Below are positions 1 to 37,060 of a stretch of DNA of 64,000 bases, piece after piece. Under the pieces are notes generated by a model. That model had not been told where the DNA came from, did not search any database, and saw nothing but the letters and a program-made list of their open reading frames with translations. The number at the start of each line of letters is the position of its first letter. Position 1 is the first letter of the stretch. Source of the stretch: Candidatus Enterousia sp. (lineage in GTDB: Bacteria > Pseudomonadota > Alphaproteobacteria > Rs-D84); assembly GCA_045646605.1 (NCBI GenBank), contig JAZRLA010000015.1, forward strand, positions 137,054 to 201,053, in the 5' to 3' direction. Made by a program: the position numbers and the translations under genes.

Positions 1-191
1 TATGGGGCGTCCGGGATGTCAAAAAATGGGGTTACGGAAAAAAGTGTGCTTGCCAGAATCCAACAAGAAGCCGAAACACCATATGAAAACAAAAAGAAAG
101 CAAATATAAACAAACTTCGCAATATCAACGTAAAGAAAAAAAATATGCTGACATCAATTTTGGAACACCTTGATAAATTGATTTAAAAAAT

Positions 192-785
192 ATGAATCAA
201 TACAACGAATTTTTGGATTCTTGGAATCATGTTCTGGGATACGAAACACCGAGGCATCATCAAGAAATGACAAATTTTCTTGCCAATGTCACCGAAGGCG
301 ATTCGCATCGTGGGTTACTTATGGCGTTCAGGCATTCCGGAAAATCAACAATTGTTGGAATTTTTGCCGCATGTGTGTTATATATGCGTCCTGAAACACG
401 AATTTTAATTTTATCTGCGGAAACACATTTGGCAACACGAATGGTTATGCATATACGGCATATATTGGAAAATCATCCATGGTGCGTCGATATGATCCCC
501 AAAAATAAACGTGAATGGGCAGAAAACAAAATAACAATCAACAGACCGATCGGCATACGTGAACCTTCGGTTGTTTGCCAAGGTATCCACGGAAATATAA
601 CGGGTATGCGTGCAGATTTAATAATATGTGACGATGTCGAGGTACCAAATACATGCAACACAATAAAAAAACGTGGTGCGCTGCGTGAAAGATTAAGGGA
701 ACTGGATTTCATCCTTTCACCACACGGCACCATGATTTATATTGGAACGCCACATACACTGGATACGATATATCGCACAAATTAA
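192..785 (+). CDS. phage/GTA-like terminase large subunit, N-terminal ATPase fragment (gene appears split)
   Basis: Walker A 'RHSGKST' and Walker B 'DLIICDDVE' motifs. ORF stops at 785. The matching nuclease half resumes at about 4160 on the same strand. Confidence 0.6.
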   Translation: MNQYNEFLDSWNHVLGYETPRHHQEMTNFLANVTEGDSHRGLLMAFRHSGKSTIVGIFAACVLYMRPETRILILSAETHLATRMVMHIRHILENHPWCVDMIPKNKREWAENKITINRPIGIREPSVVCQGIHGNITGMRADLIICDDVEVPNTCNTIKKRGALRERLRELDFILSPHGTMIYIGTPHTLDTIYRTN

Positions 786-1435
786 TCCTTGCCATGTGAT
801 GGCATAGAACTTGTCAAACCATGTAAACGATGTAACAGTTCTTTACCTTCGTTCCCAAACATAGGAAGATAAGTTTCATATTCCGGCATATCAACCTGAA
901 GATTTGCGCGAACACGATCAGTTACCGGTTGTGCAAGGATTTCATTCGCAATATTCCAAATTTGATACGCTTTGGATACACGAACAATGTCATCAAATTT
1001 TTTCAATTCTTCGTGATTGTTGGCCAATACGTTTCGTGACATCGTAACCCAATCAGTCCCAAATTTTTTTATGATTGGGTTATTCATAAATTCATCCATA
1101 CCTTCTGGGGTTGGATTAAACGAATCAACCGCCGAAATAACTTGCTGTAATTCTTCGGGCACTATATTGGTGACGACCGTTGATTCGGCCATCATACCAC
1201 CATATGGCAATAATTCTTGCGCAATAGAATCCATCGATGTGACACCATCACGCAGGTTTTTGATATGTTGAACCAACATTTTCCCCGTCGGCAAATCTTG
1301 CAATTCACGCAGAATCTCATCGTTTGCCTCGTTAACAAAAACCTGATTTACCGCGCTCCACCCGCCAACAATAACATGCGCCTGGCGGTACAGATTCAAA
1401 AGTTTCTGTGCGGTAACACTTGTCTTTGCCTTCAT
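782..1435 (-). CDS. hypothetical protein, part of the inserted module
   Basis: 217-aa ORF with no recognisable motifs. Lies inside the segment that separates the terminase halves. Confidence 0.35.
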   Translation of the reverse strand: MKAKTSVTAQKLLNLYRQAHVIVGGWSAVNQVFVNEANDEILRELQDLPTGKMLVQHIKNLRDGVTSMDSIAQELLPYGGMMAESTVVTNIVPEELQQVISAVDSFNPTPEGMDEFMNNPIIKKFGTDWVTMSRNVLANNHEELKKFDDIVRVSKAYQIWNIANEILAQPVTDRVRANLQVDMPEYETYLPMFGNEGKELLHRLHGLTSSMPSHGKD

Positions 1436-1453
1436 CTCGATTACTCCCCCGGG

Positions 1454-2464
1454 TTATTCACTGATGAACATTATGACCTTATGCATCGTTGGCGCCGAAA
1501 TCTTTTCGTCGGGTGAAACCATTTGACCATAGACCTTACCCTTTGAATCTTTGCGTACAATCGCGATATTCGCAGACACAACCTCTTCAGATTTAAGGGT
1601 GCTGAAATCTTTATTGATAAAAACAGCCAAATCGCCAACATTAACATCGGCCTTGGTATCGGCAAAAATATAAGATTTTTCAGGTACAAATCCACCCAAA
1701 CGCTTGGAATTTGGTATAACCGCGTAAACACCGCGACGACCTTCAAGATTTGCCGGGGCCGCGATCATATTTGAATCCGACCTTTTGAACGATAGGTTCT
1801 TGCCATCTGGTTTGCCAAATACGGGAATCAATTTGCGACGCGCATTATCATAAAGCTTTGCACCATACAAATGCCCGTGCATTTCATCAAAATCACCCGC
1901 CGAATCCCCAGGCACCAAAACGGCCTTTACACGTTCTTGGACCTTGTTCATTTGTTTCGCTAATTCGCCAGATTTGTAAAGTTCCGCAATTTTATCAAAC
2001 AGGCTTTCGACAGAATGTGCAAAAGATTTCGCCAACGGTTCAATTTCGTTTTTATAAACCTCGCGTTGTCCGACCTCTATCTTGTGATAAACCGAAAGTG
2101 TCATACCGGCGTCCTTGGCCGCTTGGGCAATTGTTTTGCCGGATTGTTGACGTATTTTGCGTAATCCACTGCCAAATACTTTAAGTCCACCATCTTCGTT
2201 GTCGTTCATACGACGTGTGATTTCGGTTTGCCACTTGGATGCAACTTCATCAGTATCCTTGATAAAAATGTCGGACAATTTGCACCCCAATATATTGCAT
2301 ATATTCAATAATTGTTTCTGATTAAGGCGCCGCACACCCTTTTCAATCTTGGAAACGGCGGACAAAGACAAATTTGAACGACGTGCAAGTTCGGTCATTT
2401 TCATGCCCGTCGCAAGCCTTATATTACGAATATTGTTTGGAAAAATGATTTCTTCTTGGGCCAT
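1454..2464 (-). CDS. XRE-family repressor-like protein with two HTH domains and a C-terminal S24 (LexA/CI)-like domain
   Basis: Two HTH_XRE-like segments ('MTELARRSNLSLSAVSKIEKG' and 'IAQAAKDAGMTLSVYHKIEVG'). C-terminal region resembles the S24 peptidase fold ('DSNMIA'). Confidence 0.5.
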   Translation of the reverse strand: MAQEEIIFPNNIRNIRLATGMKMTELARRSNLSLSAVSKIEKGVRRLNQKQLLNICNILGCKLSDIFIKDTDEVASKWQTEITRRMNDNEDGGLKVFGSGLRKIRQQSGKTIAQAAKDAGMTLSVYHKIEVGQREVYKNEIEPLAKSFAHSVESLFDKIAELYKSGELAKQMNKVQERVKAVLVPGDSAGDFDEMHGHLYGAKLYDNARRKLIPVFGKPDGKNLSFKRSDSNMIAAPANLEGRRGVYAVIPNSKRLGGFVPEKSYIFADTKADVNVGDLAVFINKDFSTLKSEEVVSANIAIVRKDSKGKVYGQMVSPDEKISAPTMHKVIMFISE

Positions 2465-2537
2465 TTAAAGTCTCCTTGGATAAATCTTGACAAAATAATA
2501 AGGGATTTTTTAAACCATGGCAAGGAAAAAGTTTTGG

Positions 2538-2625
2538 GGTGGTTAGTGTTAGTGGCTAGTGGTTAGTAAACTCTGGAACTTATCCATAATTGTGAACAAA
2601 ATCCAAAGGTTACTAACCACTACTC
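2538..2625. repeat. palindromic repeat element A, copy with a divergent core
   Basis: Left arm GGTTAGTGTTAGTGGCTAGTGGTTAGT and right arm TACTAACCACTAC flank a CTCTGGAA...core. Overlaps the dnaB stop codon. Confidence 0.55.
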
Positions 2626-4287
2626 AAATTCATCGGGAATTTCATCGATGTCAATCGGCGTTGGGGCGTCAGTTGGCCCAGGAACCGGCGATACATCGGG
2701 TGCAAATTCAACCGTGCGACCCGCCATTTCATTAAGGTTATCGAACAAACTATATTCAGCCAAGAACGCAACCGTAACCGTATCTGTTCGACCGTGACGA
2801 TTTTTACCAATGATAATATCAGCCTTGCCCTTGGCCTTTTCAAGTCGGTTTTGCCATGAATCAACAGACTTTTCACTTGGTGTATTTGAAAGTCGCCGCG
2901 ATGGATCACGGTTTTGCAGATAATATTCTTCGCGATATGTGAACATAACAATGTCTGCATCTTGTTCAATAGAGCCCGATTCACGCAAATCGGCAAGTTG
3001 TGGCCGTTTATCATCGCGATTTTCCACACTGCGCGACAATTGTGAAAGTGCGATAACCGGAACACTAAATTCCTTGGCCATCATTTTAAGACCACGCGTG
3101 ATTTCGGATAATTCCTGAACACGATTATCACTGCGTTTACCCCCCGGCAAAGTTAGTAACTGCAAGTAATCAATAACGATAAGCGCAATTCCGTTATATT
3201 TCCGGGCAAGCCGTCGCACGCGTGTGCGAATCATCGGCAAAGACATCCCTGGGGTATCATCAATAAACAATGGAATTCGTCCGATTGCATCGGAAAATTG
3301 CGCCATTTTAAGGAAATCTTCATCAGTTAAAGAACCTTCACGCATCGCGGACGATGGAATTCGTGCCTGGGATGACAAAACACGTGCCGCCAATTCGGAT
3401 GCACCCATCTCTAAGCTGAAAAACGCAACGGCACCTTTATACTGTTCATTCGCGCGACCAGAAAAAATCGCATTTGCCGCATTAAACGCAATATTCATGG
3501 CAAGTGTGGTTTTACCCATACCCGGGCGTCCCGCGATGATAAGTAAATTTGATTTATGCAATCCACTTATTGCACGGTCCAAATCGGTAAGCCCAGTGGT
3601 CAGCCCAGAAAGTTTCCCATCGGCTTTGTACGCGATTTCTGCTTCGGCCAGTGCATCCTTTAACGCATTTGCAATTGGTACGACATCACGCGACGCATCC
3701 CCGGTCATTGCAAGATTGAATAACTTTTGTTCGGCGGATTCGATTTGTGATGATACCGGGTTATCAAGGTCTTCAACAAATGCCGCATCGGTAACGGATT
3801 GCCCAAAATCAATAAGTTCGCGCCGCACCGCATTTTCGTGAACAATTCGCCCATACTGTTCAACATTCACGACCGTTGCGCCGGCGCCAGCCAATTGAGT
3901 CAGGTATTCAACCCCACCAACCGATTCCAATGTTCCCTGTTGATCAAGGTAATTTTTTGCCGTGATTATATCAAAAGGAATTCCGGCGGCAAATTGGCGC
4001 AGGGCAAGTTTATATATTTCCTGGTGCGCGGGATGTGAAAAATCTTCGGGTCGCAGAAATTCGGAAATTTTTTCCAATGCGCGATTTTTCATCAAAACCG
4101 CGGCAAGGACGGCCTGTTCGGCCTCTAAATTAGTCGGTAAAGTTTTGGGAGTAAAGTCCATGCCAAACATAGTATACGAAAAAAATGTTTTTTCAACGCC
4201 TTTTTTATCGGGATATGCGGAACTTAAAATTCCAATAGTCGACAAAGATGGAACCGCGGCATGGCCGGCGGTTTTTCCCATAGACAA
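2620..4287 (-). CDS. dnaB: replicative DNA helicase DnaB
   Basis: DnaB N-terminal domain followed by RecA-like core with 'GRPGMGKTTLA' Walker A and 'IVIDYLQLL'. True start may be the internal 'MFGMDF'. Acidic C-terminal tail. Confidence 0.85.
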   Translation of the reverse strand: MSMGKTAGHAAVPSLSTIGILSSAYPDKKGVEKTFFSYTMFGMDFTPKTLPTNLEAEQAVLAAVLMKNRALEKISEFLRPEDFSHPAHQEIYKLALRQFAAGIPFDIITAKNYLDQQGTLESVGGVEYLTQLAGAGATVVNVEQYGRIVHENAVRRELIDFGQSVTDAAFVEDLDNPVSSQIESAEQKLFNLAMTGDASRDVVPIANALKDALAEAEIAYKADGKLSGLTTGLTDLDRAISGLHKSNLLIIAGRPGMGKTTLAMNIAFNAANAIFSGRANEQYKGAVAFFSLEMGASELAARVLSSQARIPSSAMREGSLTDEDFLKMAQFSDAIGRIPLFIDDTPGMSLPMIRTRVRRLARKYNGIALIVIDYLQLLTLPGGKRSDNRVQELSEITRGLKMMAKEFSVPVIALSQLSRSVENRDDKRPQLADLRESGSIEQDADIVMFTYREEYYLQNRDPSRRLSNTPSEKSVDSWQNRLEKAKGKADIIIGKNRHGRTDTVTVAFLAEYSLFDNLNEMAGRTVEFAPDVSPVPGPTDAPTPIDIDEIPDEFE

Positions 4288-5008
4288 AATAGAAAAAATT
4301 CGTAAAACGGTCGGAGAAAGGTATTTTTCAGCACAAATGATGTTGCAATTTGTTGCGCCTGATAAAATACGCCTCGATCCGGGTGGTATAAAGTTTTATG
4401 ATACTGACTTTGATCCGCACAGTTGCCGAATTGGTGATACACCAATAACTGGGGCAACAATTTATTGGGACCCATCGGGCGGTCGACGAAATTCTGATAA
4501 CAGTGTTTGTGTCATTATTTATCGCGATGACCGAACGCACCGGGTTTTTATCCACGATATAATTTATATCGTTGTCCCAGACGCAATTCAATATCCGCTT
4601 GCCTATCAATGTGAAAAAGTTCTTGGGTTTGTGCGTGCGCATCGGCAAAGGGCGCTCTGTCTTGAAACAAATGGAATCGGTGCGGCATTGCCGGAAATAA
4701 TGCGCGAAACAATTTCACGCGCTGGTTACGAAATACAAATACGTCCAATAACCAACAGCCGTCGCAAAGAAGACAGAATTTTGGACGCGATTGAACCATT
4801 GCTTACGACCGGACGTTTTTACGCAAATCGACGTATAACCCAGACACCATTTATATCAGAAATGTTGGCATGGACCCCGATTGGCAGTTCCGAACATGAT
4901 GACGGATTGGACGCAGTCGCGGGTGCAATTTTATGTTCGGCCACACCGATGCGGCCGATTGGAACAAATGTTCACAATTACATTGCGAACACAGATTTTA
5001 AACTTTAA
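4160..5008 (+). CDS. terminase large subunit, C-terminal nuclease fragment
   Basis: Continues the terminase after the about 3.4-kb opposite-strand insertion. The six-frame ORF 3962-5008 has a spurious N-terminal extension that overlaps dnaB antisense. Confidence 0.5.
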   Translation: MPNIVYEKNVFSTPFLSGYAELKIPIVDKDGTAAWPAVFPIDKIEKIRKTVGERYFSAQMMLQFVAPDKIRLDPGGIKFYDTDFDPHSCRIGDTPITGATIYWDPSGGRRNSDNSVCVIIYRDDRTHRVFIHDIIYIVVPDAIQYPLAYQCEKVLGFVRAHRQRALCLETNGIGAALPEIMRETISRAGYEIQIRPITNSRRKEDRILDAIEPLLTTGRFYANRRITQTPFISEMLAWTPIGSSEHDDGLDAVAGAILCSATPMRPIGTNVHNYIANTDFKL

Positions 5009-5023
5009 CCAAAAGGAAAGAAA

Positions 5024-6250
5024 ATGAAATATGACTTACAAAAAATGTATTCACGTGCATTAAACCTGCGCGAACCATGGCTGAAACGCTGGTCGGATGC
5101 GCGCCGTTATACAATGCCAACAACCGATGAAGAAATCGCGACATTGTTTGATGGAACGGCGGCGGATGCGGCGGACAATCTTTCGGCATGTATGTATTCA
5201 TTGCTAACGCCACCGGAATCATTGTGGTTGAACCTTGTCCCTGAATCCGAAGAATCACCGGACCCGGTTGCGGCAACTATGGCATTACGTTCGAATCTTA
5301 ATGAATCTAACTTTTATACAACTGTTCATCAATGTTATATGGATTTGGTAACAATGGGAACGGCGTGTTTGTTTATGTCTGAATCACCAATTGGTGCGGC
5401 AAGTGCATTTAACTTTACGGCAATCCCGATGACGGACATCGCGATTTTGCCGAATGCGGTATTTCATACTGCAACCGTTACCGCCCAAGATGTCGCGCGC
5501 CGTTATCCTGAATGGACGCCACCACGTGCAATCGTTGACGCAATAAAGCAAAATCCTGAATATCAATTACGCCTGGTCCAGGCATTAATTGATACCGAAT
5601 TCACTGCATGGATAGATGCGGGTGGCAATATTGAAAACAATATTGTTGCGACCGGCACATTCGAAACAAACCCATACATCATATTCCGTTGGGCGTTGGC
5701 GAGTGGCGAACTTTACGGTCGCGGTCCAATTCTGCGTGCATTACCCGATATCAAAACTGCAAATAAAGTTGTAGAATTGGTCCTTAAAAATGCGACAATC
5801 GCGGTCAGTGGTATATGGCAAGCCGATGATGACGGGGTCATAAACCTTAGTAACATCAATTTAACACCTGGTGCAATAATTCCCAAAGCGGTGGGCAGCA
5901 CCGGCCTAACGCCACTTGCGACGGGCGCGAACTTTGATGTGTCACAGATAATTTTGAAAGACCTGCGTGAACGCATCCGCCACACAATGCTTGCGGACAG
6001 AATCGGCACGCTTTCGGACAAAGAAATGACCGCAACGGAAATACTTGCGCGGAACGCGGACATGCTGCGCATATTGGGCGCGACATATGGACGATTGCTG
6101 CACGAATTTATCCGCCCGCTTTGCGACCGCGGACTTCAAATTTTGGCGCGGCGCGGCGTAATCGACAAAATATCACTGCACAGTGATGCGGAATTAAAAT
6201 ACATCGCACCGATTGCACAAATGGTCGCGGAAAACGGCACATTGATATAG
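5024..6250 (+). CDS. phage portal (head-to-tail connector) protein
   Basis: 408-aa ORF directly downstream of the terminase with an RBS. Synteny and overall portal-like composition support the call. Confidence 0.5.
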   Translation: MKYDLQKMYSRALNLREPWLKRWSDARRYTMPTTDEEIATLFDGTAADAADNLSACMYSLLTPPESLWLNLVPESEESPDPVAATMALRSNLNESNFYTTVHQCYMDLVTMGTACLFMSESPIGAASAFNFTAIPMTDIAILPNAVFHTATVTAQDVARRYPEWTPPRAIVDAIKQNPEYQLRLVQALIDTEFTAWIDAGGNIENNIVATGTFETNPYIIFRWALASGELYGRGPILRALPDIKTANKVVELVLKNATIAVSGIWQADDDGVINLSNINLTPGAIIPKAVGSTGLTPLATGANFDVSQIILKDLRERIRHTMLADRIGTLSDKEMTATEILARNADMLRILGATYGRLLHEFIRPLCDRGLQILARRGVIDKISLHSDAELKYIAPIAQMVAENGTLI

Positions 6251-6259
6251 GGGGCGCGC

Positions 6260-6466
6260 ATGGAAAAAATCGCACACGAATACGCCCGCACTTTTGCAGG
6301 GCCGTCCGGTCGGGCGGTCATTGACCACCTGCGCCGGATAACAATCGAAAGGGTGTTGGGGCCGCACGCAACGGACGCAGAATTGCGAACGCTGGAGGGT
6401 GCGCGCGCAATCGTGCATCAAATTGAAACACTAATTGAACGGGGACGGAACAATGCCAAAATCTAA
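6260..6466 (+). CDS. hypothetical small protein in the phage-like cluster
   Basis: 68-aa ORF placed where GTA/phage head clusters carry a small ORF after the portal. Confidence 0.25.
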   Translation: MEKIAHEYARTFAGPSGRAVIDHLRRITIERVLGPHATDAELRTLEGARAIVHQIETLIERGRNNAKI

Positions 6467-6710
6467 TGGATTCGCAAACATCATCGACACATTGCGCAGT
6501 GGTTGGTTCCTTATCGCGTTTATTGCCGGCATGATATATTGGGTCGCGCGCCAAGATAACGCCCTGGTCGAACTTGACCGATTGACGACACGCATAACGA
6601 CACTTGAAAACCGGACAACGATTTTGGAAACCGGAATAGGGCAATTACAACTAAAAATCGACGGCATCAAAGAAGACCTGACCATCATCAAAACAGCGGT
6701 GATAAAGTAG
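6435..6710 (+). CDS. small membrane protein with coiled coil (holin-like or unknown)
   Basis: One TM helix ('WFLIAFIAGMIYWV') followed by a heptad-like region. Confidence 0.3.
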   Translation: MNGDGTMPKSNGFANIIDTLRSGWFLIAFIAGMIYWVARQDNALVELDRLTTRITTLENRTTILETGIGQLQLKIDGIKEDLTIIKTAVIK

Positions 6711-6726
6711 TGTTAGTGGTAAGTGT

Positions 6727-6814
6727 AAGTGGTTAGTATACTCTGGAATAATTTCGCAATTACGGATTGATTCCAGAAGACGACTAACCACTAGAAAGCG
6801 TTTTTTGAATTTAA
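6727..6814. repeat. palindromic repeat element A (canonical copy)
   Basis: Arms GTGTTAGTGGTAAGTGTAAGTGGTTAGT and ACTAACCACTAG flank the palindromic core TTCTGGAATAATTTCGCAATTACGGATTGATTCCAGAA. Confidence 0.7.
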
Positions 6815-6835
6815 TTTGAAAAATTTAACAACATA

Positions 6836-6864
6836 TTGACAATGTGTGTTTTCTGTGCTATTAT
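6836..6864 (+). promoter_or_regulatory. near-consensus sigma70 promoter for the 6897 gene
   Basis: TTGACA, 17-nt spacer, TATTAT. An AAAGAG RBS precedes the ATG at 6897. Confidence 0.5.
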
Positions 6865-6896
6865 ATGGTCGTACAACAAAATAAAAAGAGTAAAAC

Positions 6897-8183
6897 ATGA
6901 CAGAATTAAATAAAAAATTCGGCTTTACAGAAGAACAGTTAGAACAGTTTGATGACGATCTTAGAAATGGCGGAAGAGACGGTAGAAGAGCACAAATACC
7001 CAAAGAGGTTTTGGCGATACTGGGTGATTATTACGTGCAATTGATTGAAAAATCCGTTCAGGCGACCGAAAAAGGTATGTCACACGAGGATGACATAGCT
7101 TCAGTAAGTCACCCTTTGTGCCATATTTACGAAGATGGTTTGATGGCCAATGAATTATATCGCCCGATTGGTGATATTTTGTTAGATAAATTGATTGAAA
7201 AGGCCGAACAGGGGTATTACAGCCATGCAAATCGTTCAATAGATGGTTATTGGCGCAGTGTGAAAGATAATAAAGATGCCCAGAAAGGATTGAAAACGAT
7301 ATTAGAAAAACATCCTAACTATGCATTTGGGCAGAAATATTTATCATACATGAATGGTGCCAGTCCCGAAGACGAAATGGCGATGATACAAAGTTATATT
7401 GAAAACCCAGATATGTATTTTGTTACCACAATTATGGTCGATATTGATGGCACACTTATTCGAAACGGTAAAGCCAATGATAATTTGATAGATTCAATTA
7501 TTGGTCGTAAAAATATCGCCATTTATACGGGTGGGGACCCCGTGAGCCAAAAGAAAGTTCTTGTAAAGGCAATCGCAGAAAAAATTTTGGAAAAATTCCC
7601 TTTGATAAAGGAAGATTTTTCTGTGGATACTATTGTAAATATTTATTCCCAAGATAATGAACAGAATATAGCATTGCGTGAGAAGTTATCACGCACACTA
7701 AGAGACAAAATCTGGGGTTTGTTTTTCAACCAAGAACCTGGCAATAAAGTTGATGCCCATATGATAGATGATATGGCGAACCGGGCTAAACGTATTTTGG
7801 AATTTCTAAATCGTTTAACGGCAACAGGTGGTGATCAGATTAAAATTTATCCAAAACAGGCATTCGCGCAGGAAAATATTTGTTTGGCCGACACTGTGAT
7901 TGATGATACCCAACCAGCCGCCCAGGGAATGAAAAGTCTTTATTCAGCGTGTCTGACCCCAGGTGAATCCCCGTTTTGGGTGAAAGAGATCAGGGGTGTC
8001 GAAAGGGGAATATCCAAAGAACGCGAAATAACGGCAGAGCAAGCTTTTGCTATGTATCAGCAAAAATGTAAAGAAAACATGATTGCGGGCGCTAAACAAG
8101 TTGATAAGCTAAGTGCTACCGAACAGAAAGCAACGGCTTTTTCTGATTCGTGTAAAACCGATGTTAAAAAAACTACTAGATAG
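6897..8183 (+). CDS. hypothetical protein with a central HAD-like phosphatase motif
   Basis: 'FVTTIMVDIDGTLI' matches HAD motif I (hhhhDxDGTL). Large flanking regions are unknown. Bracketed by A elements. Confidence 0.45.
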   Translation: MTELNKKFGFTEEQLEQFDDDLRNGGRDGRRAQIPKEVLAILGDYYVQLIEKSVQATEKGMSHEDDIASVSHPLCHIYEDGLMANELYRPIGDILLDKLIEKAEQGYYSHANRSIDGYWRSVKDNKDAQKGLKTILEKHPNYAFGQKYLSYMNGASPEDEMAMIQSYIENPDMYFVTTIMVDIDGTLIRNGKANDNLIDSIIGRKNIAIYTGGDPVSQKKVLVKAIAEKILEKFPLIKEDFSVDTIVNIYSQDNEQNIALREKLSRTLRDKIWGLFFNQEPGNKVDAHMIDDMANRAKRILEFLNRLTATGGDQIKIYPKQAFAQENICLADTVIDDTQPAAQGMKSLYSACLTPGESPFWVKEIRGVERGISKEREITAEQAFAMYQQKCKENMIAGAKQVDKLSATEQKATAFSDSCKTDVKKTTR

Positions 8184-8196
8184 TACGAAACCAGAA

Positions 8197-8371
8197 TAGT
8201 GGGTAGTGTAAGTGATTAGTGTTAGTGCGGGCGCGTTTGCGCCCGTTTTTGCGACACCCCGGCCTGCGGCCACCCCTCTAGCCAGATGGGAACTTTGCTT
8301 TCTGGAATAATTTCACAATCACGGATTGATTCCAGAAACTACTAACCACTTCCCACTAACACTAACCACTA
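8197..8371. repeat. palindromic repeat element A with embedded hairpin and element B
   Basis: Contains the A arms and core, the hairpin GCGGGCGCGTTTGCGCCCG, and a B copy at about 8253-8295 (GACACCCCGGCCTGCGGCCACCCCTCTAGCCAGATGGGAACTT). Confidence 0.7.
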
Positions 8372-8710
8372 AAACGCATTTTTCGTCCAATCTATGTGCC
8401 ATCCGTGGACGATAATAACATCAAACCGCGCGTCACCACACCAACGCCGCTGCAGCAAAAATGTTTCCGCCGCCAATCGCAGCCGCCTTTGTTGCGCGGA
8501 CGTAATCGCACCCCACGCCGCCATCACATTTTTGCGCTTTTTTACTTCGACAAAGATAATAAGTTTTCCGCGTTTTGCAATTATATCAATCTCTGCGCGC
8601 CCCGTATTTCGCCCGGTCGTATAACGCCGATGCAAAATCCGAAATCCATGCAATACCAAAAAAGCGCATGCAAAAAATTCTGAAAAAATTCCGGTCTTGT
8701 ATGAATCCAT
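8369..8710 (-). CDS. yraN: YraN-family (UPF0102) endonuclease
   Basis: 113 aa with 'GRAEIDIIAKRGKLIIFVEVKKRK', typical of YraN. Confidence 0.65.
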   Translation of the reverse strand: MDSYKTGIFSEFFACAFLVLHGFRILHRRYTTGRNTGRAEIDIIAKRGKLIIFVEVKKRKNVMAAWGAITSAQQRRLRLAAETFLLQRRWCGDARFDVIIVHGWHIDWTKNAF

Positions 8711-8712
8711 AT

Positions 8713-9513
8713 CTAAAACGCATAGGGTTCGGCGGCAAAATTATCCTGTGATTGCTGGACATTAAGGGCGCTATCCTCCGCATGCTTGCCACAGTCAATC
8801 AATTCCAATTCCCCCGAATACGCCGTCATCATTGGGTCGAACGAATTATCTGAACTTGCCCACCGCGTTGCGCCCGCATTCGGCACGCCATATTTATCAA
8901 CAACATTTTGCCACCAATACATAGTTTTTTTGTCGCGTTGATTTTCAAACTTTTCCGCATCGCCTTCCATTTCATCGGTGTCGTTATGATAGACGATTTT
9001 CCACACGACATTATCGGTTGCGTTGCTTGTAAAGAACACATCAATTGTTTCGCCCGTGACACCGCGCACCAGGTGCAATTCCGCCGCATACAATACGCCA
9101 CGATTCCGCGCAAGTGAATTTATACATTTTTCCAATGCCGCCGGCGCATAAATTTTCATCCGTCGACATTCGTAATCAAGGTTATATTTCCAATCGGGGT
9201 GCATCGAATACACAACACTATTTTTTGGTCGTTCGGCATAAAGGCCATCGGCGGCCACAATAAATTTAACCGCATCAAAATCCATCCCCAGCATGATACC
9301 CGCAATATCAAAATCCGCAACCGGCGATACCGCCGCACCGGCGTTTAGTGACACGGTATCCAAACTGCACTCAATATCACCCGTGTCCGGCGTTTCGATA
9401 TAGTAATCATCAAAATTGATATTATCGTCTGCCAAAACATCATCAAACTCGTCCGCGCGCGCGCCGACCGATAACAAACAAACAAAAATTCCAACAATAA
9501 TTTTTTTCATCAC
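8713..9513 (-). CDS. secreted protein, possibly outer-membrane associated
   Basis: Signal peptide 'MMKKIIVGIFVCLLSVGARA'. C-terminal residue is aromatic ('...EPYAF'). Confidence 0.4.
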   Translation of the reverse strand: MMKKIIVGIFVCLLSVGARADEFDDVLADDNINFDDYYIETPDTGDIECSLDTVSLNAGAAVSPVADFDIAGIMLGMDFDAVKFIVAADGLYAERPKNSVVYSMHPDWKYNLDYECRRMKIYAPAALEKCINSLARNRGVLYAAELHLVRGVTGETIDVFFTSNATDNVVWKIVYHNDTDEMEGDAEKFENQRDKKTMYWWQNVVDKYGVPNAGATRWASSDNSFDPMMTAYSGELELIDCGKHAEDSALNVQQSQDNFAAEPYAF

Positions 9514-23162: not shown

Positions 23163-26100
23163 ATGCCGACGAATGAAAAATTAAACGAAAATACCAAGAT
23201 TTATGACAAAAATGTTGCCCGTTTTGCTAAGCGAATTGCCGCGGCTTATGGTGACGCCAAGGTTCGTCTTTTGGCTTCGCGCGATGTTCGTCGTGCGGTC
23301 CTTTTGCGCGATATTGATGCCATAAATAATGTTATTGCCAAGGTTCCACAAATGTCGGCGGGACTACGTTTGGATTTTTGCGATGCCTTTGTTGGTGAAG
23401 ATATGTCGGGACTGGATTTAGCCACACCGGCAATTTTGGCGGATGCGTATCGCGCCATTTCCGCGCGTGTCAAAGAAGGGGATGCAAAACAGCAAGAACG
23501 TCTTGATAAAATTGCGGCGCGTATCGACGATTTATCCGCGGATTTTGCAAATTCTGGCGGCATGGTGGTAAGCCAAAATGAATGGCCATTGGTTGATATG
23601 TCGAATATTGCCAATATTTATGAAGGTTTCGGCAATATGCTTGATGCACGTATCGTGGATGTGGACGTGGATAAAAATCCAGAAAAAGTCGCAGAAATGC
23701 AGGCAAACAAAAAACAGATAGAAACGGTTGTTTCGGATTATGATGGGTCTTGGGGGCTTGGAAAGTTGCGCGCCGAAGATGCACCAAAATTGGCGGACCG
23801 TTGGGACGAAATTTATGCCATGTTGAACCGTGCAAAAATCTTTGATGAAACCAAGGAAAAAACCGCAAAATGTAAGTTTTTGGATGCCCGTGGTAATATT
23901 ATTCCGCAGTTCAAGTCTAATAAACGTGGCGACACGAAAAGATATGAAGAATACGATGTTGGGTTCGATATTGCCAAAGATGGTCGACTTGCATCCATTG
24001 TTGAACTTGCGCGTCATAATGTCGCAAAAAGACACGTTGCAAATTTTGATGACAAAATCGATGAAGATACGCTTGAATCTGAATTAAACGAAGAAATTTT
24101 GAGTGTTTTATATGAGGTTTACGCCGCAGACCAAGTTGCCCAGGATGCAACCAAAACCCCAGAACAATTTTCTGACCCTGAATTTCGTGCGGAATTTATG
24201 ACCGCCCTTAATGAAATGGGTAAAGAAATTTCAGATAATGGATATAACGTCGCAATTGAAACACAAACCGATGCAACCGTTGGGTGGGCAGCGCGTATTA
24301 AAAGCAAATTAGGTGCGGCGACCAAGAAACTCGATGGATTGTGGACGCGTGCTAATCGGCCACTTGATAGAATTGATGATATGGCGGATGTTCGTATGTC
24401 GCGCGGGGCGGTTGCGCGTCGTAAAAAACGTCGTGAATTTTGTTGGCGTATTTTAAAGGGTTTTAACAGTTCGTTTATCGTAAGTGCGCTTATTACGGTG
24501 ATTGCAGCCGCGGCGGCGGCAAGGTTGGGCGTGTCACTTGCGTCGGGACTTGCCATGATTGGCGGCGGCCTTGCGCTTGGGATGATTGGTTTCCAAGTTG
24601 CGCGTTGGATTAAAAATCAAAAAAAGAATAATTTACCGGTCAGTTTAGAGGAGTTTTTCAAGGATAAACAGTTGGTACGTTCAATTGTGACCAGTGCGCT
24701 TGCAATTGCGGCCATGGGACTTGGTGCGGCTGGATTGGGTGCCGCCGCAATGACCGTTGGTGTTGGTGCGGCGTTACTTGGCGCATACAATAATGGACGC
24801 GGTGTATTCGAAGCGGCGCGTGATGTTAAAATGTCGCACCGTCAAAGAATCGCATGGGCGATTGCGAATGCCGGATCGGTCATTGCGGGTGCGCTTGGCG
24901 GCGGTTATGTTGGACGCGGATTGGTCAGTATGTTTAACCGTTTGTATCCGGGTAACACATTTTTCCAAAATAAAGAAACAGTTGAAGGACCAAAGCGCAA
25001 GGTTTCTGACGAAATCACGCACGAAAGGACAACCAGACATTATACAGATGATATGTTAAGAAGCGCCAAGGATGCCGTGGAAGATTGGTACGCGCACGAT
25101 TATCCAAATCATCCGGAAATATTGCAACAGGATATTGATGCCGTAAATCAGTACAATGCGGACCATGATACCAACCTTGATCCATATCGTATATTGCGCG
25201 CAATGAAAACATCGCAACCATCACGTTTGGTATATACCGAGGGTTGGACCAATGCACATAACATTTCCCAAGAAACAATTGCTCAGGCCGCAAATGCGGT
25301 TGGTGGTGGAACCTATAATCCCGCGGGCATAGAATCCGCACGTTTGATAGATGCAAATATGGGTACCCAAGGCGAAGTGGGCCCGGTTGGGGATTTTACA
25401 AATAAAACCTATTCACCGATTACGGAATTACCAACCGACAAAATCGAAACCGTTGTTGATCAACCGGCGGTTTACGAGCAAACATATAACGATACATACA
25501 AACCTGTTGATGTAAAGCCTGGATATGGCGCATTCGGAAATTACACGCCACGTGAACGCATTAATGATCGTATTGCTTCTTTCCTTGATCGTGTGCGTCG
25601 TGGTCGGCGTGCGGAATCAAAACCGACGTTGGAACCAAAACCGACATATGTTCCGCCAATTACCAGCATAAAAGAACCCGCAGACAAAAAATTACAAGGT
25701 TTTGAATCGGATACAAAAGATAAAAAGCCGACATATGTTCCGCCAATTACCCACATAAAAGAACATGCAGACAAAAAATTACCGGATATATCACTTGATC
25801 GTGTGTTTCCGAAACCGGCTTTTGACGATACCGAAGGGCACCTGCGTCGCATACGTGATGCATACCGGGATTTAAAAACCCAAGATGTACCTGTGGCCCC
25901 CGAAAAAACGGACGTCGCACCAAAACGTACGTCTGTTTTGGCGGTGACATACGCGCGTGCAAAAAAATGGGACGAATTGCATGACAAATTGGACGAAGTC
26001 AGGAATAAAATAATGAATTCTGCGCTTGGTGCGGCAAAAAGTGCGGAACTTAGGGCCCAAGAAAAGAATATTATCCACAAAATAGAACATTTATATAATT

Positions 26101-28262
26101 ATTTTGGACGGCCGTCTATGGATGAACTTGGCGCTGCACTTGCCAATGCGTATCGCCGTGAATATGTATATCATATGCGTGCAAAACCCGATGAAAAACA
26201 TTCTTCGCACAAGACGGTTCGTGATTGGAATGAAAAACACGAACGTTTGTTGAAAAAAATGGAATTGTATGGTTGGGATGAACCTTTGGACGGCGAAAAT
26301 CTTGATTTTGCCGCTCCAGTTATGGGCGTTCAGGCGCAAAAACAGGTTGTTCGTGGCCAAAAATATGAACAAGAACGTTTGCAACGTGAAGAGGCCGAAC
26401 AACAGAAAGTAAAAAATTTACGTTTGCCGGTCTTGATGTACAGACCTGAAAAAAAGAAAAATAGAAGATTTCATAAACCCTTTGAACAGGAAAAACCCAT
26501 AATTTTGGCGGACCTTGGGACGGCACTTGAAAATGTCCAGGCAAAGGATGGACAACAAGTTGGTGATAGAAAATATTTTGTTCCAGATGCCCTTAGAAAT
26601 TTGGCCGGAAACAAAAATTTGTTCACAGAACCGCTGATTGAAATACGCGGTGTGCCGGTTAACCTTATCGATTTAACGGGGCAGAATAACCCAATTACAC
26701 AAAGTGAAAATCGCGTAATGGTTATGGTAGATGTTGATGGATTGCGGATGCCGTTCTTCCTTGCCAATGGCGATGAAAAGTTTGAAAATATTAAACCCGG
26801 GAAATGGTATCCGGCATTCGATTTATCGCGTGACGGTTCGTGGCGTTTTTGGAAAACGGCGGAATACCTTGATTCGAAAAGAGGTGAAACATCCGAGAAA
26901 ATTGATGAGATATCCAAAACATTGAACGAAGTTATTGGTGATATAAGGAATTACAGGGATACCAAGGCAACAACCGAAAATGAAATACGCGGATTTGATG
27001 GTTTTGTCGGCGGTGTGGACGCCTTTGACCGTGTTGATCCCGATATCATAGTAAATATGACCGAACATCAACCAAATGATTTGGGCAAATATATGTATTG
27101 GTTAAGTTTGGGGGACAAAATGACGGGTGCGTATGTGCCATATATAAAATGGTATTTTGAAAATATTAAATCACCCGATTATGCCCCAGAAGAAAAAAAT
27201 TGGCTTGATGAAATAATTGAAAAACATCAGGACACCGTGCAAAACGTCAAGAGCACCGCCAAGAACGTCGTGCAAAACGTCAAGAGCACCGCCAAGAACG
27301 TTGTGCAAAACGTCAAGAACACTGTCCAGGAACGTCGTGAAAAACGTCAAGAACGCCGCCAAGAACGTCGCGAAAACCGTTCCGGCATTATATCAAATGC
27401 GGATGTCGAAAACGTGTTACCCGGGGACATGATGCTACCGGTTTCTGAACCTGTTCAAAAACCGATTGAAAAACACATTGATGAACCAAAGCCGGTTGAG
27501 CCGGTGGTTGCGCAAAACGGCCTTGGAACGGTGCTTGAAACCGCAATTTACAAAAATGAACACGACACTGGTGGTGAACACAAAGTGCCCGAATCTTTGA
27601 TCGATTTGGCACGTCGGCCGGATATTTTTTCCACGCCAATTACGACCATACGTGGTGTACCGGTGAAATTGGTTGATATCACGGGACACAATAACCCATT
27701 CACCCAAAGTGAAAATCGCGCAATGGTTATTGTCGATGTTAATGGCCAACGTTTACCATTTTACCTTGCCAATGGGAACGAACGTGGTGTGACGGGGGTC
27801 GCGGGTGTTTGGCGACCGGTTTTGACCCTTGATCGTACCGGCCGGTGGTATATAAATTCAAATGATCATGTTGATTCCAAAGAGTTAAATACGATCATCA
27901 ACGCGTTGAATGAACACATCGGCGACATACGGAATTACAGGGATAAAACGGCCACACATACACGAATGGAAATAACAGGGGACAAGGAAAATTTTGTTGG
28001 TGGTGTTGATGCCATTGACCAGGTTGATCCAAACAAAATCTTGGATATCATAAGGGCGGGCAACACAACCAATGATGATGACATTATATGGTGGCCTTAT
28101 GGTGGGGGTGCATCGTGGCATGCAAAACCGGGTGCCGTTGCAAAGTTTTTACGTGGGGTAGAATCGCCCGATTATCGCCGATCAAGAGGTTTTCTGGAAA
28201 AGTTAGAGGAAGGATTAGGCCGGCGGTTTAAACGGTTTAATAGGGATAAAAAATACGAATAA
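23163..28262 (+). CDS. giant (1699 aa) multi-domain membrane protein with duplicated C-terminal domains
   Basis: Continuous ORF. TM cluster at about aa 430-590. Tandem repeats at protein and DNA level. Two paralogous modules of about 170 aa. Confidence 0.6.
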   Translation: MPTNEKLNENTKIYDKNVARFAKRIAAAYGDAKVRLLASRDVRRAVLLRDIDAINNVIAKVPQMSAGLRLDFCDAFVGEDMSGLDLATPAILADAYRAISARVKEGDAKQQERLDKIAARIDDLSADFANSGGMVVSQNEWPLVDMSNIANIYEGFGNMLDARIVDVDVDKNPEKVAEMQANKKQIETVVSDYDGSWGLGKLRAEDAPKLADRWDEIYAMLNRAKIFDETKEKTAKCKFLDARGNIIPQFKSNKRGDTKRYEEYDVGFDIAKDGRLASIVELARHNVAKRHVANFDDKIDEDTLESELNEEILSVLYEVYAADQVAQDATKTPEQFSDPEFRAEFMTALNEMGKEISDNGYNVAIETQTDATVGWAARIKSKLGAATKKLDGLWTRANRPLDRIDDMADVRMSRGAVARRKKRREFCWRILKGFNSSFIVSALITVIAAAAAARLGVSLASGLAMIGGGLALGMIGFQVARWIKNQKKNNLPVSLEEFFKDKQLVRSIVTSALAIAAMGLGAAGLGAAAMTVGVGAALLGAYNNGRGVFEAARDVKMSHRQRIAWAIANAGSVIAGALGGGYVGRGLVSMFNRLYPGNTFFQNKETVEGPKRKVSDEITHERTTRHYTDDMLRSAKDAVEDWYAHDYPNHPEILQQDIDAVNQYNADHDTNLDPYRILRAMKTSQPSRLVYTEGWTNAHNISQETIAQAANAVGGGTYNPAGIESARLIDANMGTQGEVGPVGDFTNKTYSPITELPTDKIETVVDQPAVYEQTYNDTYKPVDVKPGYGAFGNYTPRERINDRIASFLDRVRRGRRAESKPTLEPKPTYVPPITSIKEPADKKLQGFESDTKDKKPTYVPPITHIKEHADKKLPDISLDRVFPKPAFDDTEGHLRRIRDAYRDLKTQDVPVAPEKTDVAPKRTSVLAVTYARAKKWDELHDKLDEVRNKIMNSALGAAKSAELRAQEKNIIHKIEHLYNYFGRPSMDELGAALANAYRREYVYHMRAKPDEKHSSHKTVRDWNEKHERLLKKMELYGWDEPLDGENLDFAAPVMGVQAQKQVVRGQKYEQERLQREEAEQQKVKNLRLPVLMYRPEKKKNRRFHKPFEQEKPIILADLGTALENVQAKDGQQVGDRKYFVPDALRNLAGNKNLFTEPLIEIRGVPVNLIDLTGQNNPITQSENRVMVMVDVDGLRMPFFLANGDEKFENIKPGKWYPAFDLSRDGSWRFWKTAEYLDSKRGETSEKIDEISKTLNEVIGDIRNYRDTKATTENEIRGFDGFVGGVDAFDRVDPDIIVNMTEHQPNDLGKYMYWLSLGDKMTGAYVPYIKWYFENIKSPDYAPEEKNWLDEIIEKHQDTVQNVKSTAKNVVQNVKSTAKNVVQNVKNTVQERREKRQERRQERRENRSGIISNADVENVLPGDMMLPVSEPVQKPIEKHIDEPKPVEPVVAQNGLGTVLETAIYKNEHDTGGEHKVPESLIDLARRPDIFSTPITTIRGVPVKLVDITGHNNPFTQSENRAMVIVDVNGQRLPFYLANGNERGVTGVAGVWRPVLTLDRTGRWYINSNDHVDSKELNTIINALNEHIGDIRNYRDKTATHTRMEITGDKENFVGGVDAIDQVDPNKILDIIRAGNTTNDDDIIWWPYGGGASWHAKPGAVAKFLRGVESPDYRRSRGFLEKLEEGLGRRFKRFNRDKKYE

Positions 28263-36786: not shown

Positions 36787-37060
36787 GGTAAATGTTACTA
36801 AATTCTATGGCAAGATTATCGTAACGTTGCGACAATTTCCAGAACGACGTCATACCGCCGAAGGGCGGTATCCAGTTTTTGCGAATGCAAAAACTTGCGT
36901 CGCAGACATTTATGTTTTTCATCGCAAAGCGATGAAAAATCCCTTGCGGGGCAAGTCATCGCTATCGCAATGCCTGGGCACCACGCTTCCGCGGTGTGAC
37001 GATTCACTGGAATTTTAGTAACCTGTTTCAATTGTGCATTAACAAAAATTTACAAATTAC

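Follow-up and report, generated by a model that had tools for sequence, protein, structure and literature searches.

Three solitary copies of a short GC-rich double hairpin, here called B, were confirmed to belong to the same repeat family as the inverted arms of two nuclease-encoding cassettes in the gene queA, and this family shows a strong, two-way association with genes of the DUF559 family. The copies lie in a stretch of 64,000 nucleotides from Candidatus Enterousia sp. that was analysed as a whole (the window). Taking all lines of evidence together, the solitary copies are probably best explained as gene-less members of a REP/MITE-like B family that also has a coding form, with a gene for a Vsr/EDxHD-type nuclease.

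The window contains eight copies of the approximately 45-nt element, five of them in the two queA cassettes and three solo, and six of the eight sit in or beside queA (Table 1). The motif was found at all three sites, and at essentially the positions, where the sequence-only reading had placed solitary copies. One of these had been described as directly following the tgt stop codon; a copy is indeed present there, but its outer end (TAGTTCTCC...) and the stop codon overlap. Each solo is a single arm rather than an inverted pair, and all three are located at the 3' ends of genes, the tgt copy at a distance of 1.3 kb from queA cassette 2. The gene-less copy in tandem with the left arm of cassette 1 had not been named as a solo in the earlier reading. 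A profile built from all eight copies returned exactly eight matches in the 64 kb (E 8e-15 to 5e-9), the next match having E = 0.3. With nhmmer the solos gave E = 1.1e-10 (8252), 1.5e-13 (58319) and 4.8e-9 (45920), and with a covariance model the copies at 8253, 58321 and 45919 scored 58.5, 57.2 and 53.3 bits, respectively. As the motif is short and C/G-rich and shuffled versions of the 8253 copy fold just as well, we considered whether the resemblance could be due to chance or be a by-product of GC-rich low-complexity sequence. Such an origin, whose probability we regard as practically nil, is refuted by shuffling (four matches of a degenerate B pattern in the window versus none in 100 shuffles), by the clean gap between noise and profile E-values reaching 1e-14, and by the covariance-model scores; moreover, the features follow one order in each of the eight copies, as they do in hundreds elsewhere.

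Table 1. Positions of B copies, cassette components and A-type repeats in the window.
Feature	Position	Strand	Remarks
Solo B	8253-8295	+	Inner end GCGACAC; stem 2 CCCCTCT/AGATGGG; within A-type repeat 8196-8375
Solo B	58321-58364	+	Stem 2 CCCCTCT/AGAGGGG; within composite A+B repeat 58289-58424, directly 3' of RNase J gene
Solo B, B3 subtype	45919-45963	-	ACCACCTCCC...CTCCTCC/GGAGGAG; outer end supplies tgt stop TAG (45919-45921)
Extra gene-less B	42983-43023	-	In tandem, with 47-nt period, with left arm of queA cassette 1; translated in frame in queA
Left arm B(-), queA cassette 1	43030-43074	-	Inverted repeat, 98% complementary
DUF559 (Vsr/EDxHD-like nuclease) coding core, cassette 1	43107-43430	+	In frame with queA
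Right arm B(+), queA cassette 1	43432-43475	+	
Left arm B(-), queA cassette 2	44132-44180	-	Stem 1 of 7 bp
DUF559 coding core, cassette 2	44220-44522	+	Residues 447-547 of 643-aa ORF; in frame with queA
Right arm B(+), queA cassette 2	44533-44577	+	Conserved in relatives L051 and L041
A-type repeat	8196-8375		AGTG-rich arm, terminator hairpin 8225-8247, B, central hairpin, CACT-rich arm
A-type repeat	58289-58424		Host of the solo B at 58322
A-type repeat without B	6700-6795		Empty comparison copy
Diverged A-type repeat without B	2540-2622		A+B composite at orthologous place in four relatives

Folding of the window copies showed that each consists of two adjacent hairpins, as the designation double hairpin had implied, although the fold z-score is weak for the 8253 copy, whose stem 2 has a G>T change. 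Copies range from approximately 42 to 48 nt in length, and the aligned window copies share a conserved outer end (AAGTT/AACTT) and an inner end RACCAC. Stem 2 occurs in the types CCCCTCC/GGAGGGG, CCCCTCT/AGAGGGG and CTCCTCC/GGAGGAG, and 96.6% of its pairs are Watson-Crick, which renders a strand-specific wobble bias, as a possible sign of a role in RNA, uninformative. Stem 1 varies in sequence: 285 of 363 copies, compared to 77 of 363 shuffles, form a stem of 4 bp or more without mismatch, 122 different stem sequences are represented, and the two arms of a single cassette can have unrelated ones. In an alignment that was itself fitted to the structural model, 91.3% of cells are paired, double-sided changes occupy 65 cells versus 15 expected (a number reached by 0 of 500 shuffles), and slid controls gave 0.02-0.04 versus 0.123. 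Together with a compensatory G/C swap between the left arm of cassette 2 and its counterpart in the relative L051, this shows that both stems are maintained by compensatory changes. B is open in all six reading frames in 34% of copies, versus 16% of shuffles. Rfam searches, of the whole window at the gathering threshold and of 42.9-46.1 kb at E <= 10, returned tRNAs and noise only and no family for B.

The protein encoded between the cassette arms matches Pfam DUF559 with E = 1.8e-53, and also DUF559 / REase_MTES_1575. Residues D55, E66 and H72 are invariant and D68 is at least 90% conserved in DUF559, and all four are present in both window cassettes. A structure model of the domain (pLDDT 87.7) was matched by Foldseek to 3HRL (E = 1.3e-5), to the homing endonuclease I-Bth0305I (3R3P, E = 2.9e-4, TM 0.62) and to Vsr (1VSR, 0.057). 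The cassette protein is thus predicted to adopt a catalytic fold like that of Vsr, and acidic and histidine residues are conserved in it. Within the 643-aa ORF Pfam identified only Queuosine_synth, DUF559 and MTES_1575, and neither a self-splicing intron family (Rfam) nor an intein domain (Pfam, 643-aa ORF) housing DUF559 was detected. Across relatives, DUF559 cassettes occupy fixed sites within the conserved host gene queA, and the subtype of the 8253 solo also forms cassette arms in L051 and L130.

The association of B with the nuclease was assessed from the protein side at 70 evaluable DUF559 loci chosen by protein alone, using a query devoid of B-encoded residues. B was present on both flanks in 52 of the 70 loci, 47 of them in the canonical order B(-)-gene-B(+); at a cut-off of at least 20 bits these numbers were 41 of 70 and 38. 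Within 200 nt of DUF559 the density of B amounts to 3.4-4.6 per kb, versus 0.10-0.20 per kb elsewhere in those loci, an enrichment of 23-34x depending on the score cut-off. The sequence-only reading would have been undermined by a ubiquitous motif with no enrichment around DUF559 cassettes; the motif did prove to be widespread, but it is strongly concentrated next to DUF559. The two-way association of B with DUF559 is strong. We found no description of it in the searchable literature, no description of hairpin repeats in the papers there that mention DUF559, and nothing relevant on Vsr together with MITEs or inverted repeats. The nearest item reports that DUF559 genes are 14-fold enriched among inverted-repeat-flanked "programmed inversion" predictions (PMC9881135).

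Beyond the window, a genome collection was scanned with an exact 19-base core pattern of stem 2, so that the loci obtained are selected on that core. It occurs at no fewer than 119 loci in about 14 phylum-level groups. Among the B-selected loci listed there are 247 B hits, of which 30 lie within 150 nt of DUF559, 122 in clusters lacking DUF559 and 95 singly, corresponding to a ratio of gene-less to cassette-linked copies of about 7 to 1 in this set. One possibility offered by the sequence-only reading was that the cassette draws its termini from a hairpin family existing independently of it; this is supported in a broader form, with about 14 phyla and most of the listed copies away from DUF559. 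Gene-less B takes several forms: single copies, tandem runs, inverted doublets in either polarity and in-frame ORF inserts, the last in Der, MnmE, MnmA and an E2 acyltransferase. Proper pairs are no more common than single ends or outward-facing doublets. The gaps of -/+ pairs are bimodal, measuring either 16-110 nt or 244-455 nt with none between. Mini pairs of approximately 125-131 nt have AT-rich spacers, no DUF559 remnants were found in the spacers of short -/+ pairs, and one MAG carries six paralogous copies of a discrete gene-less form.

Comparison with relatives for presence or absence of the element showed that all three solo sites differ, which indicates that the solos are recent or dynamic. 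Two of them lie, as had been noted from the sequence, inside A-type repeats (the 8253 and 58322 copies), and in both hosts B is flanked by the AGTG-rich arm on one side and by the central TTCTGGAAT...ATTCCAGAA hairpin, which its AACTT end faces, on the other. At the locus of the empty A-type repeat 6700-6795, L005 carries B(-) and L008 two tandem B copies. In L005 the position of the 8253 copy is taken by a B(-)/B(+) pair without a gene, whose right arm corresponds to this copy and shares its derived GATGGG change. Composites nearly identical to that at 58289-58424 are found in L001, L005, L006 and L007, while at the orthologous 58322 site of L209, L210 and L212 B is absent and plain terminators are present instead. 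After tgt, B is absent in three relatives (L109, L041 and L051). Positionally orthologous B copies diverge far more than their flanks, which could reflect conversion and weakens simple statements of orthology. No target-site duplication was seen at two informative filled/empty sites, whose junctions are somewhat untidy: at the first, the empty sequence AAAG-GTT corresponds to AAAG-(38 nt)-GTT with no direct repeat, and at queA site 3, empty in the window, L051 has a gene-less in-frame B, with 58 nt in place of 7 nt and again no direct repeat.

These data bear on the suggestion that the solos are footprints of excised or decayed cassettes, each having once been a full DUF559 cassette from which the gene and one arm were deleted or excised. 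B flanks DUF559 genes of this subfamily on both sides in nearly every case, the tgt copy is close to cassette 2, and the derived change shared with the right arm of the L005 pair speaks weakly for such an origin of the 8253 copy alone. However, no DUF559 remnant was detected beside any of the solos by tblastn or in the sequences of the three sites, and the L005 pair is itself gene-less, with a spacer typical of the mini pairs. The 58322 copy is part of a multi-copy A+B composite copied as a unit, and the tgt copy is of the B3 subtype, unlike the arms of the neighbouring cassette. More generally, the bimodal pair gaps provide no continuum of decay, the gene-less copies outnumber the cassette-linked ones among the listed loci, and +/- doublets cannot result from internal deletion of one cassette, nor can tandem runs derive from one. 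We therefore regard decay of full cassettes as quite unlikely to account for the solos.

Another alternative is that the solos are retained by the host as terminators or mRNA-stabilising hairpins at gene ends, as has been proposed for REP. It can draw on the location of all three solos at gene 3' ends and on the 58322 site, where relatives have a GC hairpin and T-run right after RNase J and the window has only A+B; in a terminator consensus scan of this copy only stem 2 plus AACTTTATAT scores, weakly, as terminator-like. The proposal that the hairpin doubles as a terminator after tgt was not supported: no terminator was called there, 10 nt separate the T-run from the last stem, the element is missing from the relatives named above, and in L109 the ribosome-binding site of the next gene follows within about 20 nt of the tgt stop without any hairpin. 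Nor was a terminator called by the consensus scan at the 8253 copy, which sits just downstream of a separate canonical terminator. As to a preference for stop codons, no firm rule could be drawn: gene-less clusters in other genomes lie between convergent genes in 23 cases and divergent genes in 11, but the copies are not placed close against the stops, the median distance to the 3' end being about 70 nt (both numbers on crude gene calls). Furthermore, B occurs in both orientations, within ORFs and in divergent regions, and a generic terminator would not require a stem 2 sequence conserved across phyla. A host function of this kind is, in our estimation, very improbable.

Family membership, association with DUF559, turnover of sites, compensatory stems, occurrence in both orientations and inserts within ORFs together point to recognition at the level of DNA rather than to an RNA signal. 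For the preferred explanation, that the solos are gene-less members of a family with a nuclease-bearing form, we envisage the following scheme. The coding form would be the compact cassette B(-)-DUF559 nuclease gene-B(+), which gene-less copies would outnumber as REP/REPIN sequences outnumber RAYT genes and MITEs their parent IS. The Vsr/EDxHD-type DUF559 nuclease may recognise in trans the conserved stem 2 (CCCCTCC/GGAGGGG) and the flanking AAC, presented as single-stranded or extruded hairpins, and may in this way mobilise gene-less copies. Since DUF559 is limited to hydrolysis of DNA and target-site duplications were absent from the informative sites, we propose that B would be copied through repair of breaks or nicks and through gene conversion, not by cut-and-paste as with a transposase. 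The 8253 copy would then be one arm of a gene-less inverted pair of the kind carried by a relative, the 58322 copy a passenger in a lineage-specific composite A+B repeat, placed where relatives have an ordinary terminator, and the 45919 copy a B3-subtype insertion in the last codons of tgt that now supplies the stop codon. It counts against the preferred explanation that DUF559 lacks strand-transfer chemistry for insertion at sites without homology.

The reverse order of events was also considered, in which B is an autonomous or host-propagated family older than DUF559, a homing-type DUF559 targets the spacers of -/+ doublets with B as its landing site, and the solos owe DUF559 nothing. The fold match to the homing endonuclease I-Bth0305I (PMC3239194) fits such a course, as do the common short -/+ doublets, which could serve as empty sites, the far greater abundance of B than of the DUF559 gene, and the unrelated stem 1 sequences in arms of one cassette, as expected from a pre-existing doublet. 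On the other hand, the doublet spacers are heterogeneous and AT-rich, unlike the short stretches between arm and DUF559 core in cassettes, no other candidate enzyme for the spread of B was seen, and the near-invariant position of the arms relative to DUF559 across 45-80% protein identity fits co-inheritance as a unit equally well. We consider this scenario unlikely. Going further than the preferred reading, B and DUF559 might together constitute an undescribed prokaryotic selfish element, namely a hairpin-ended, nuclease-only cassette that relies on a Vsr/EDxHD-type enzyme in place of an HUH or DDE transposase, with REPIN/MITE-like gene-less copies mobilised in trans, present across about 14 phyla and tolerated in frame in essential genes, of which the solos would be units mobilised in trans and not debris; we advance this tentatively, as a possibility with somewhat less than even chances.

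The spread of short palindromic repeats is understood for the REP/RAYT and MITE/IS pairs. To our knowledge it is still open for Rickettsia palindromic elements, Correia elements and mitochondrial GC/double-hairpin elements, and we know of no settled function for the DUF559 family. Here, across many phyla and from both directions, one repeat family is linked to one small nuclease that is predicted to have the Vsr/homing-endonuclease fold. If this nuclease serves the repeats, DUF559 would gain a testable role, REP-like repeats a second enzymatic solution, and the in-frame "protein-coding palindromes" of housekeeping genes a candidate driver. A point for annotation is that translated B copies make up the P/G/S-rich tails of many database DUF559 proteins, as well as unusual inserts in Der, MnmE, MnmA or QueA.

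In comparison with known systems, B resembles the REP/REPIN-RAYT arrangement (REPtrons) in being short, GC-rich and palindromic, in being scattered, for the most part at gene ends, as single copies, clusters and inverted doublets, in having one small enzyme gene between two inverted copies with gene-less copies far commoner, and in keeping its pairing while its sequence varies. It differs in that the bracketed gene encodes a PD-(D/E)XK nuclease of the Vsr/EDxHD type (DUF559) and not an HUH Y1 transposase, and in that the unit comprises two hairpins, with the sequence of stem 2 conserved across phyla. In REPs one end of the palindrome bears a conserved tetranucleotide, GTAG or CGTC (PMC3733652), whereas the outer end in the B copies read here is AAGTT/AACTT. 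REPs are also strictly extragenic and high in copy number; the three window solos lie outside genes or, in one case, at a stop codon, and other B copies lie in frame in Der, MnmE, MnmA, E2 and queA.

With MITEs the family shares gene-less pairs, here of approximately 125-131 nt, that have the same ends as a coding version, occur in multiple copies per genome and vary in presence among relatives. In contrast to MITEs, B shows no target-site duplication (at the two informative sites), its coding version specifies a predicted hydrolytic nuclease without recognisable transposase, unlike a parent IS, and the window solos are single arms in a family whose single ends and outward-facing doublets are as frequent as proper pairs.

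Rickettsia palindromic elements are reportedly palindromic repeats inserted in frame in conserved protein genes without destroying them. They measure about 100-150 bp, are AT-richer, occur in Rickettsia only and are not linked to any gene. B likewise occurs in an alphaproteobacterial lineage and, as a family though not in the three solos, in frame in protein genes, but is set apart by size and composition, being approximately 45 nt long and GC-rich, as well as by its many host phyla and its link to DUF559. Mitochondrial double-hairpin elements, or GC clusters, are said to consist of two adjacent GC-rich hairpins that sometimes border mobile endonuclease ORFs. B, too, is composed of two adjacent GC-rich hairpins, is both intergenic and genic, and varies between close relatives; by description it is set apart from these organellar elements, which are presumably unrelated in sequence and are linked to other endonuclease families, by its hosts, bacteria of many phyla. 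Finally, the cassette protein resembles the EDxHD/Vsr-like homing endonuclease I-Bth0305I (PDB 3R3P; PMC3239194) in its predicted fold, its acidic and histidine residues and its fixed sites in queA. Unlike EDxHD homing endonucleases, DUF559 is read through in the host ORF without an intron or intein, and it is bracketed by hairpin inverted repeats that also exist in many gene-less copies.

The GC-rich double-hairpin repeat B, about 45 nt long, flanks the DUF559 nuclease genes of the two queA cassettes and is present also, without a gene, at the three solo sites that the sequence-only reading had named. Alignment of the three solo copies with the five queA copies gives the consensus (R)ACCAC-CCC, stem 1 (e.g. 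GGCC TTC GGCC), A, stem 2 (CCCCTCC NNN GGAGGGG) and an outer AACTT end. A degenerate version of this pattern matches four times in the window (0 in 100 shuffles), while a profile search of the 64 kb returns exactly eight copies (E 8e-15 to 5e-9; next match E = 0.3), for each of which the two adjacent hairpins of the earlier description are indeed predicted. Two solo copies lie within larger intergenic repeats (A-type) in identical relative position: the AGTG-rich arm is on one side of B and on the other, towards which its AACTT end points, is the central TTCTGGAAT...ATTCCAGAA hairpin. The third had been placed directly after the tgt stop codon; it does stand at the 3' end of tgt, but takes in the stop codon itself, because the TAG belongs to the outer end of B. 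Head-to-tail runs occur beside cassettes, with two copies in the window (47-nt period), and reach six copies among the matches listed (L104 513-780, 45-nt period, adjoining a DUF559 gene); several tandem copies with a 42-nt period are found in L046 at 1752-2040.

Coordinates of B copies and other features in the window
Feature	Position	Strand	Remark
Solo B, 8253 site	8253-8295	+	refined coordinates
Solo B, 58322 site	58321-58364	+	refined coordinates
Solo B, tgt site	45919-45963	-	refined coordinates; subtype B3
tgt stop codon TAG	45919-45921
Extra gene-less B	42983-43023		tandem with left arm of cassette 1
queA	42882-44813		single 643-aa ORF
Counterpart of third queA site	43570-43590		empty
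A-type repeat	2540-2622
A-type repeat	6700-6795		B-free
A-type repeat	8196-8375
A-type repeat	58289-58424
Canonical terminator	8225-8247		separate from B
Similarity to viral contigs	1-9337		69-92% identity
dnaB	2620-4287
Portal gene	5024-6250		T7-type head-tail connector
26-nt inverted pair	36848-36873, 63708-63733		perfect
1699-aa ORF	23163-28262
Four tandem repeats in this ORF	27226-27380		33-34 nt each
Longer internal repeats in this ORF	26643/27648, 26915/27899		~1 kb apart

The A-type repeats, built of arms of AGTG(G/A)TTAG-like units around their hairpin, were found among the matches listed only in L001, L005, L006 and L007, the closest relatives, and in the window itself. Their arm unit GTGGTTAG is similar to the inner ends of the cassette-2 arms (GGGGTGGTTAGAG), and both in L209 and at window position 8196 a plain terminator comes after the arm. 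The 26-nt inverted pair, CGTCATACCGCCGAAGGGCGGTATCC, is a second repeated hairpin unrelated to B, each repeat being a hairpin itself (ATACCGCC GAAG GGCGGTAT). The first 9337 nt resemble five IMG/VR contigs filed as viral (L001, L005-L008) and may represent a prophage remnant or a conserved phage-derived module; the portal gene in this segment lies between dnaB and a 428-aa ORF for which no family match was obtained.

The association of B with DUF559 holds in both directions. A metagenome collection was searched with the DUF559 core alone, a query free of B-encoded residues, which yielded 80 loci at 45-80% protein identity, 70 of them evaluable. Counting all B hits, B lies upstream in 58 loci, downstream in 58, on both sides in 52 and in the canonical arrangement, B(-) upstream and B(+) downstream, in 47; for hits of at least 20 bits the corresponding numbers are 44, 49, 41 and 38. 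In canonical loci, about 70 nt separate the upstream B(-) from the core, and 0-30 nt separate the core from the downstream B(+). Over the DUF559 loci, B density within 200 nt of the gene is 3.4-4.6 per kb as compared to 0.10-0.20 per kb in their remaining sequence. A ubiquitous repeat without enrichment around cassettes would have spoken against the link; B, widespread as it is, is enriched there. Translated B also appears in database DUF559 proteins, as N-terminal tails across many phyla (e.g. SPPLEGW..GVV, IPLLWRGG) and as C-terminal tails (e.g. NHPALRAPLQGGE, TTPAxGHPSTGGEL).

Within queA, two DUF559 domains, each flanked by B(-) and B(+), cut Queuosine_synth into three pieces in one frame throughout; the ORF stays open across both cassettes, B arms included, and no separate start codon is evident for either DUF559 segment. 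The window derives from a gut alphaproteobacterium close to Candidatus Enterousia; its queA and tgt DNA is about 80% identical to L041 and to L051 (Candidatus Enterousia sp.), whose queA carries DUF559 at both window sites and is likewise open there. DUF559-QueA fusions recur among database fragments (P0011, P0013, P0014, P0021, P0024, P0029), with a cassette-2-type DUF559 at site 1 in P0013. A third queA site (RFDA|YEITLH) holds an in-frame gene-less B in L051 (7268-7330) and is empty in the window. The filled site is 51 nt longer than the empty one, 58 nt having replaced 7 nt, and shows no target duplication.

To follow B across genomes, a genome collection was scanned for the 19-base stem 2 core with flanks (GCCACCCCTC N4-5 GAGGGGAAC), which selected at least 119 loci. 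Among the matches listed, about 69 are gut or termite alphaproteobacterial MAGs, and the others belong to Bacteroidota, Verrucomicrobiota, Kiritimatiellota, Lentisphaerota, Binatota, Deferribacterota, Ignavibacteriota, Actinomycetota, Bacillota, Cyanobacteriota, Armatimonadota, Cloacimonadota, Gammaproteobacteria and two Patescibacteria lineages. These listed matches, nine viral-collection loci and the window form a set of 129 sequences, in which a profile trained on alphaproteobacterial copies finds 247 B copies and tblastn detects DUF559 in only 10 sequences. Of the 247 copies, 30 have a DUF559 gene no more than 150 nt away, 122 are in clusters lacking DUF559 and 95 are single. Discrete gene-less forms exist: again among the matches listed, there are about 30 +/- doublets that abut with their outer ends towards each other (ACCCACCCCG...CGGGGTGGGT; gaps 0-25 nt) and 23 short -/+ pairs (gaps 16-110 nt), next to nine -/+ pairs spaced as full cassettes (gaps 244-455 nt); no -/+ pair has a gap between 110 and 244 nt. 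The short pairs measure about 125-131 nt in several genomes, and their AT-rich spacers contain no DUF559 remnant. In the termite gut MAG JAISGC01, a B(-)/B(+) mini pair is central to six paralogs of a ~200-nt repeat (L014, L032, L056, L060, L098, L101), whose conservation extends outside the pair and whose stem 1 shows compensated differences and has in some grown into a long hairpin. The +/- doublets cannot have arisen through internal deletion within a single cassette.

All three solo sites show turnover between the window and its relatives. Two junctions overall are informative as filled/empty pairs, that of the third queA site and that of an A repeat described below. At the 8253 site, L005 (flanks 87-92% identical) has B3(-), a 26-nt AT-rich spacer and B(+), the right arm having the derived GATGGG change and downstream junction in common with the window copy. 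The window lacks about 105 nt present there (left arm, spacer and a short ATTCCAGAG stretch); therefore either the window lineage has lost one arm or L005 has gained one. Gene conversion may also have acted, since stem 1 differs strongly between the two. At the 58322 site, a plain terminator comes after the AGTG arm in L209, the closest relative (RNase J 95% identical), which has neither B nor central hairpin; L210 and L212 (87%) have the plain terminator only. The window A+B composite is 82-89% identical to composites elsewhere in L001, L005, L006 and L007, at which locus the window A repeat lacks exactly the 38-nt B core (AAAG|GTT versus AAAG-38 nt-GTT), and B abuts eight of the nine detectable A central hairpins. 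This makes the 58322 solo a passenger of a composite repeat that is lineage-specific. The A-type repeat at 6700 has B(-) in L005 and, in L008, two tandem copies directly after a stop codon. After tgt, B is absent in L109, L041 and L051, where Tgt ends in NYTSKQD, KYTGE and NYTNQSE, respectively (NYMG-stop in the window). The tgt copy belongs to subtype B3 (ACCACCTCCC-stem 1-GTACTCCTCC NNN GGAGGAGAACT), to which the neighbouring queA arms do not belong. In 12 of 12 B3 copies (also L005 1166-1216, L018 2266-2314, L062 7205-7257 and others) the 5' flank CACCTCCC instead of CACCCC goes together with stem 2 CTCCTCC/GGAGGAG instead of CCCCTCC/GGAGGGG. As this flank has the sequence with which the stem 2 5' arm begins, the co-change may reflect alternative pairing, two protein half-sites or simply one common origin.

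In other genomes, gene-less B singles or doublets lie in frame, with host domains on either side, in Der/EngA (two copies), MnmE, MnmA, an E2 acyltransferase linker and an alpha/beta hydrolase; all six frames are open in 34% of B copies (16% of shuffles). Both stems are maintained by compensatory change. In 150 copies aligned to a covariance model, a fit that favours structure, 91.3% of cells are paired, six of 11 pairs show double-sided changes, compensatory changes fill 65 cells versus 15 expected (0/500 shuffles) and the covariation score is 0.123 versus 0.02-0.04 for slid controls. In an independent count, 285 of 363 copies form a perfect stem 1 (4 bp or longer), as opposed to 77 of 363 shuffles, and its sequence takes 122 distinct forms; stem 2 occurs in three compensated types, and compensated swaps are seen also among same-genome paralogs and orthologous cassette arms. 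B is found in either orientation with respect to adjacent or host genes, which argues for a DNA-level feature and not an RNA signal. By context statistics that rest on crude gene calls, gene-less B clusters lie at convergent gene ends more often than at divergent ones (23 to 11), at a median of about 70 nt from a 3' end. No terminator was called at the tgt copy, the 8253 copy lies directly downstream of a canonical terminator, and the 58322 copy scores, weakly, in stem 2 only. Since that copy stands where relatives have a terminator, it alone has possibly been exapted as one.

Taken together, the solo copies belong to the B family, and the best-supported reading counts them as gene-less members of a REP/MITE-like family that has a Vsr/EDxHD-type nuclease in its coding form. 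Less likely rivals would make the solos decay footprints of full cassettes, B the homing target of the nuclease and not a terminus, or the hairpins host terminators. On the favoured reading the nuclease would recognise the conserved stem 2, and B copies would spread via break- or nick-induced repair or conversion. The cassette protein matches Pfam DUF559 (1.8e-53), with D55, E66 and H72 invariant among aligned homologs and a second aspartate, D68, in at least 90%; both window cassettes carry all four residues. The closest solved sequence, 3HRL, is also the best match of the AlphaFold model (pLDDT 87.7), followed by the catalytic domain of I-Bth0305I (3R3P), a characterised homing endonuclease (PMC3239194), and further by RAP-domain proteins, PvuRts1I/AbaSI and Vsr. 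DUF559 has been placed with Vsr and intron endonuclease in a superfamily survey (PMC3424549) and assigned to the EDxHD family (PMC9403480), and a Caulobacter DUF559 protein causes DNA damage once a cytosine methylase is removed (PMC12907096).
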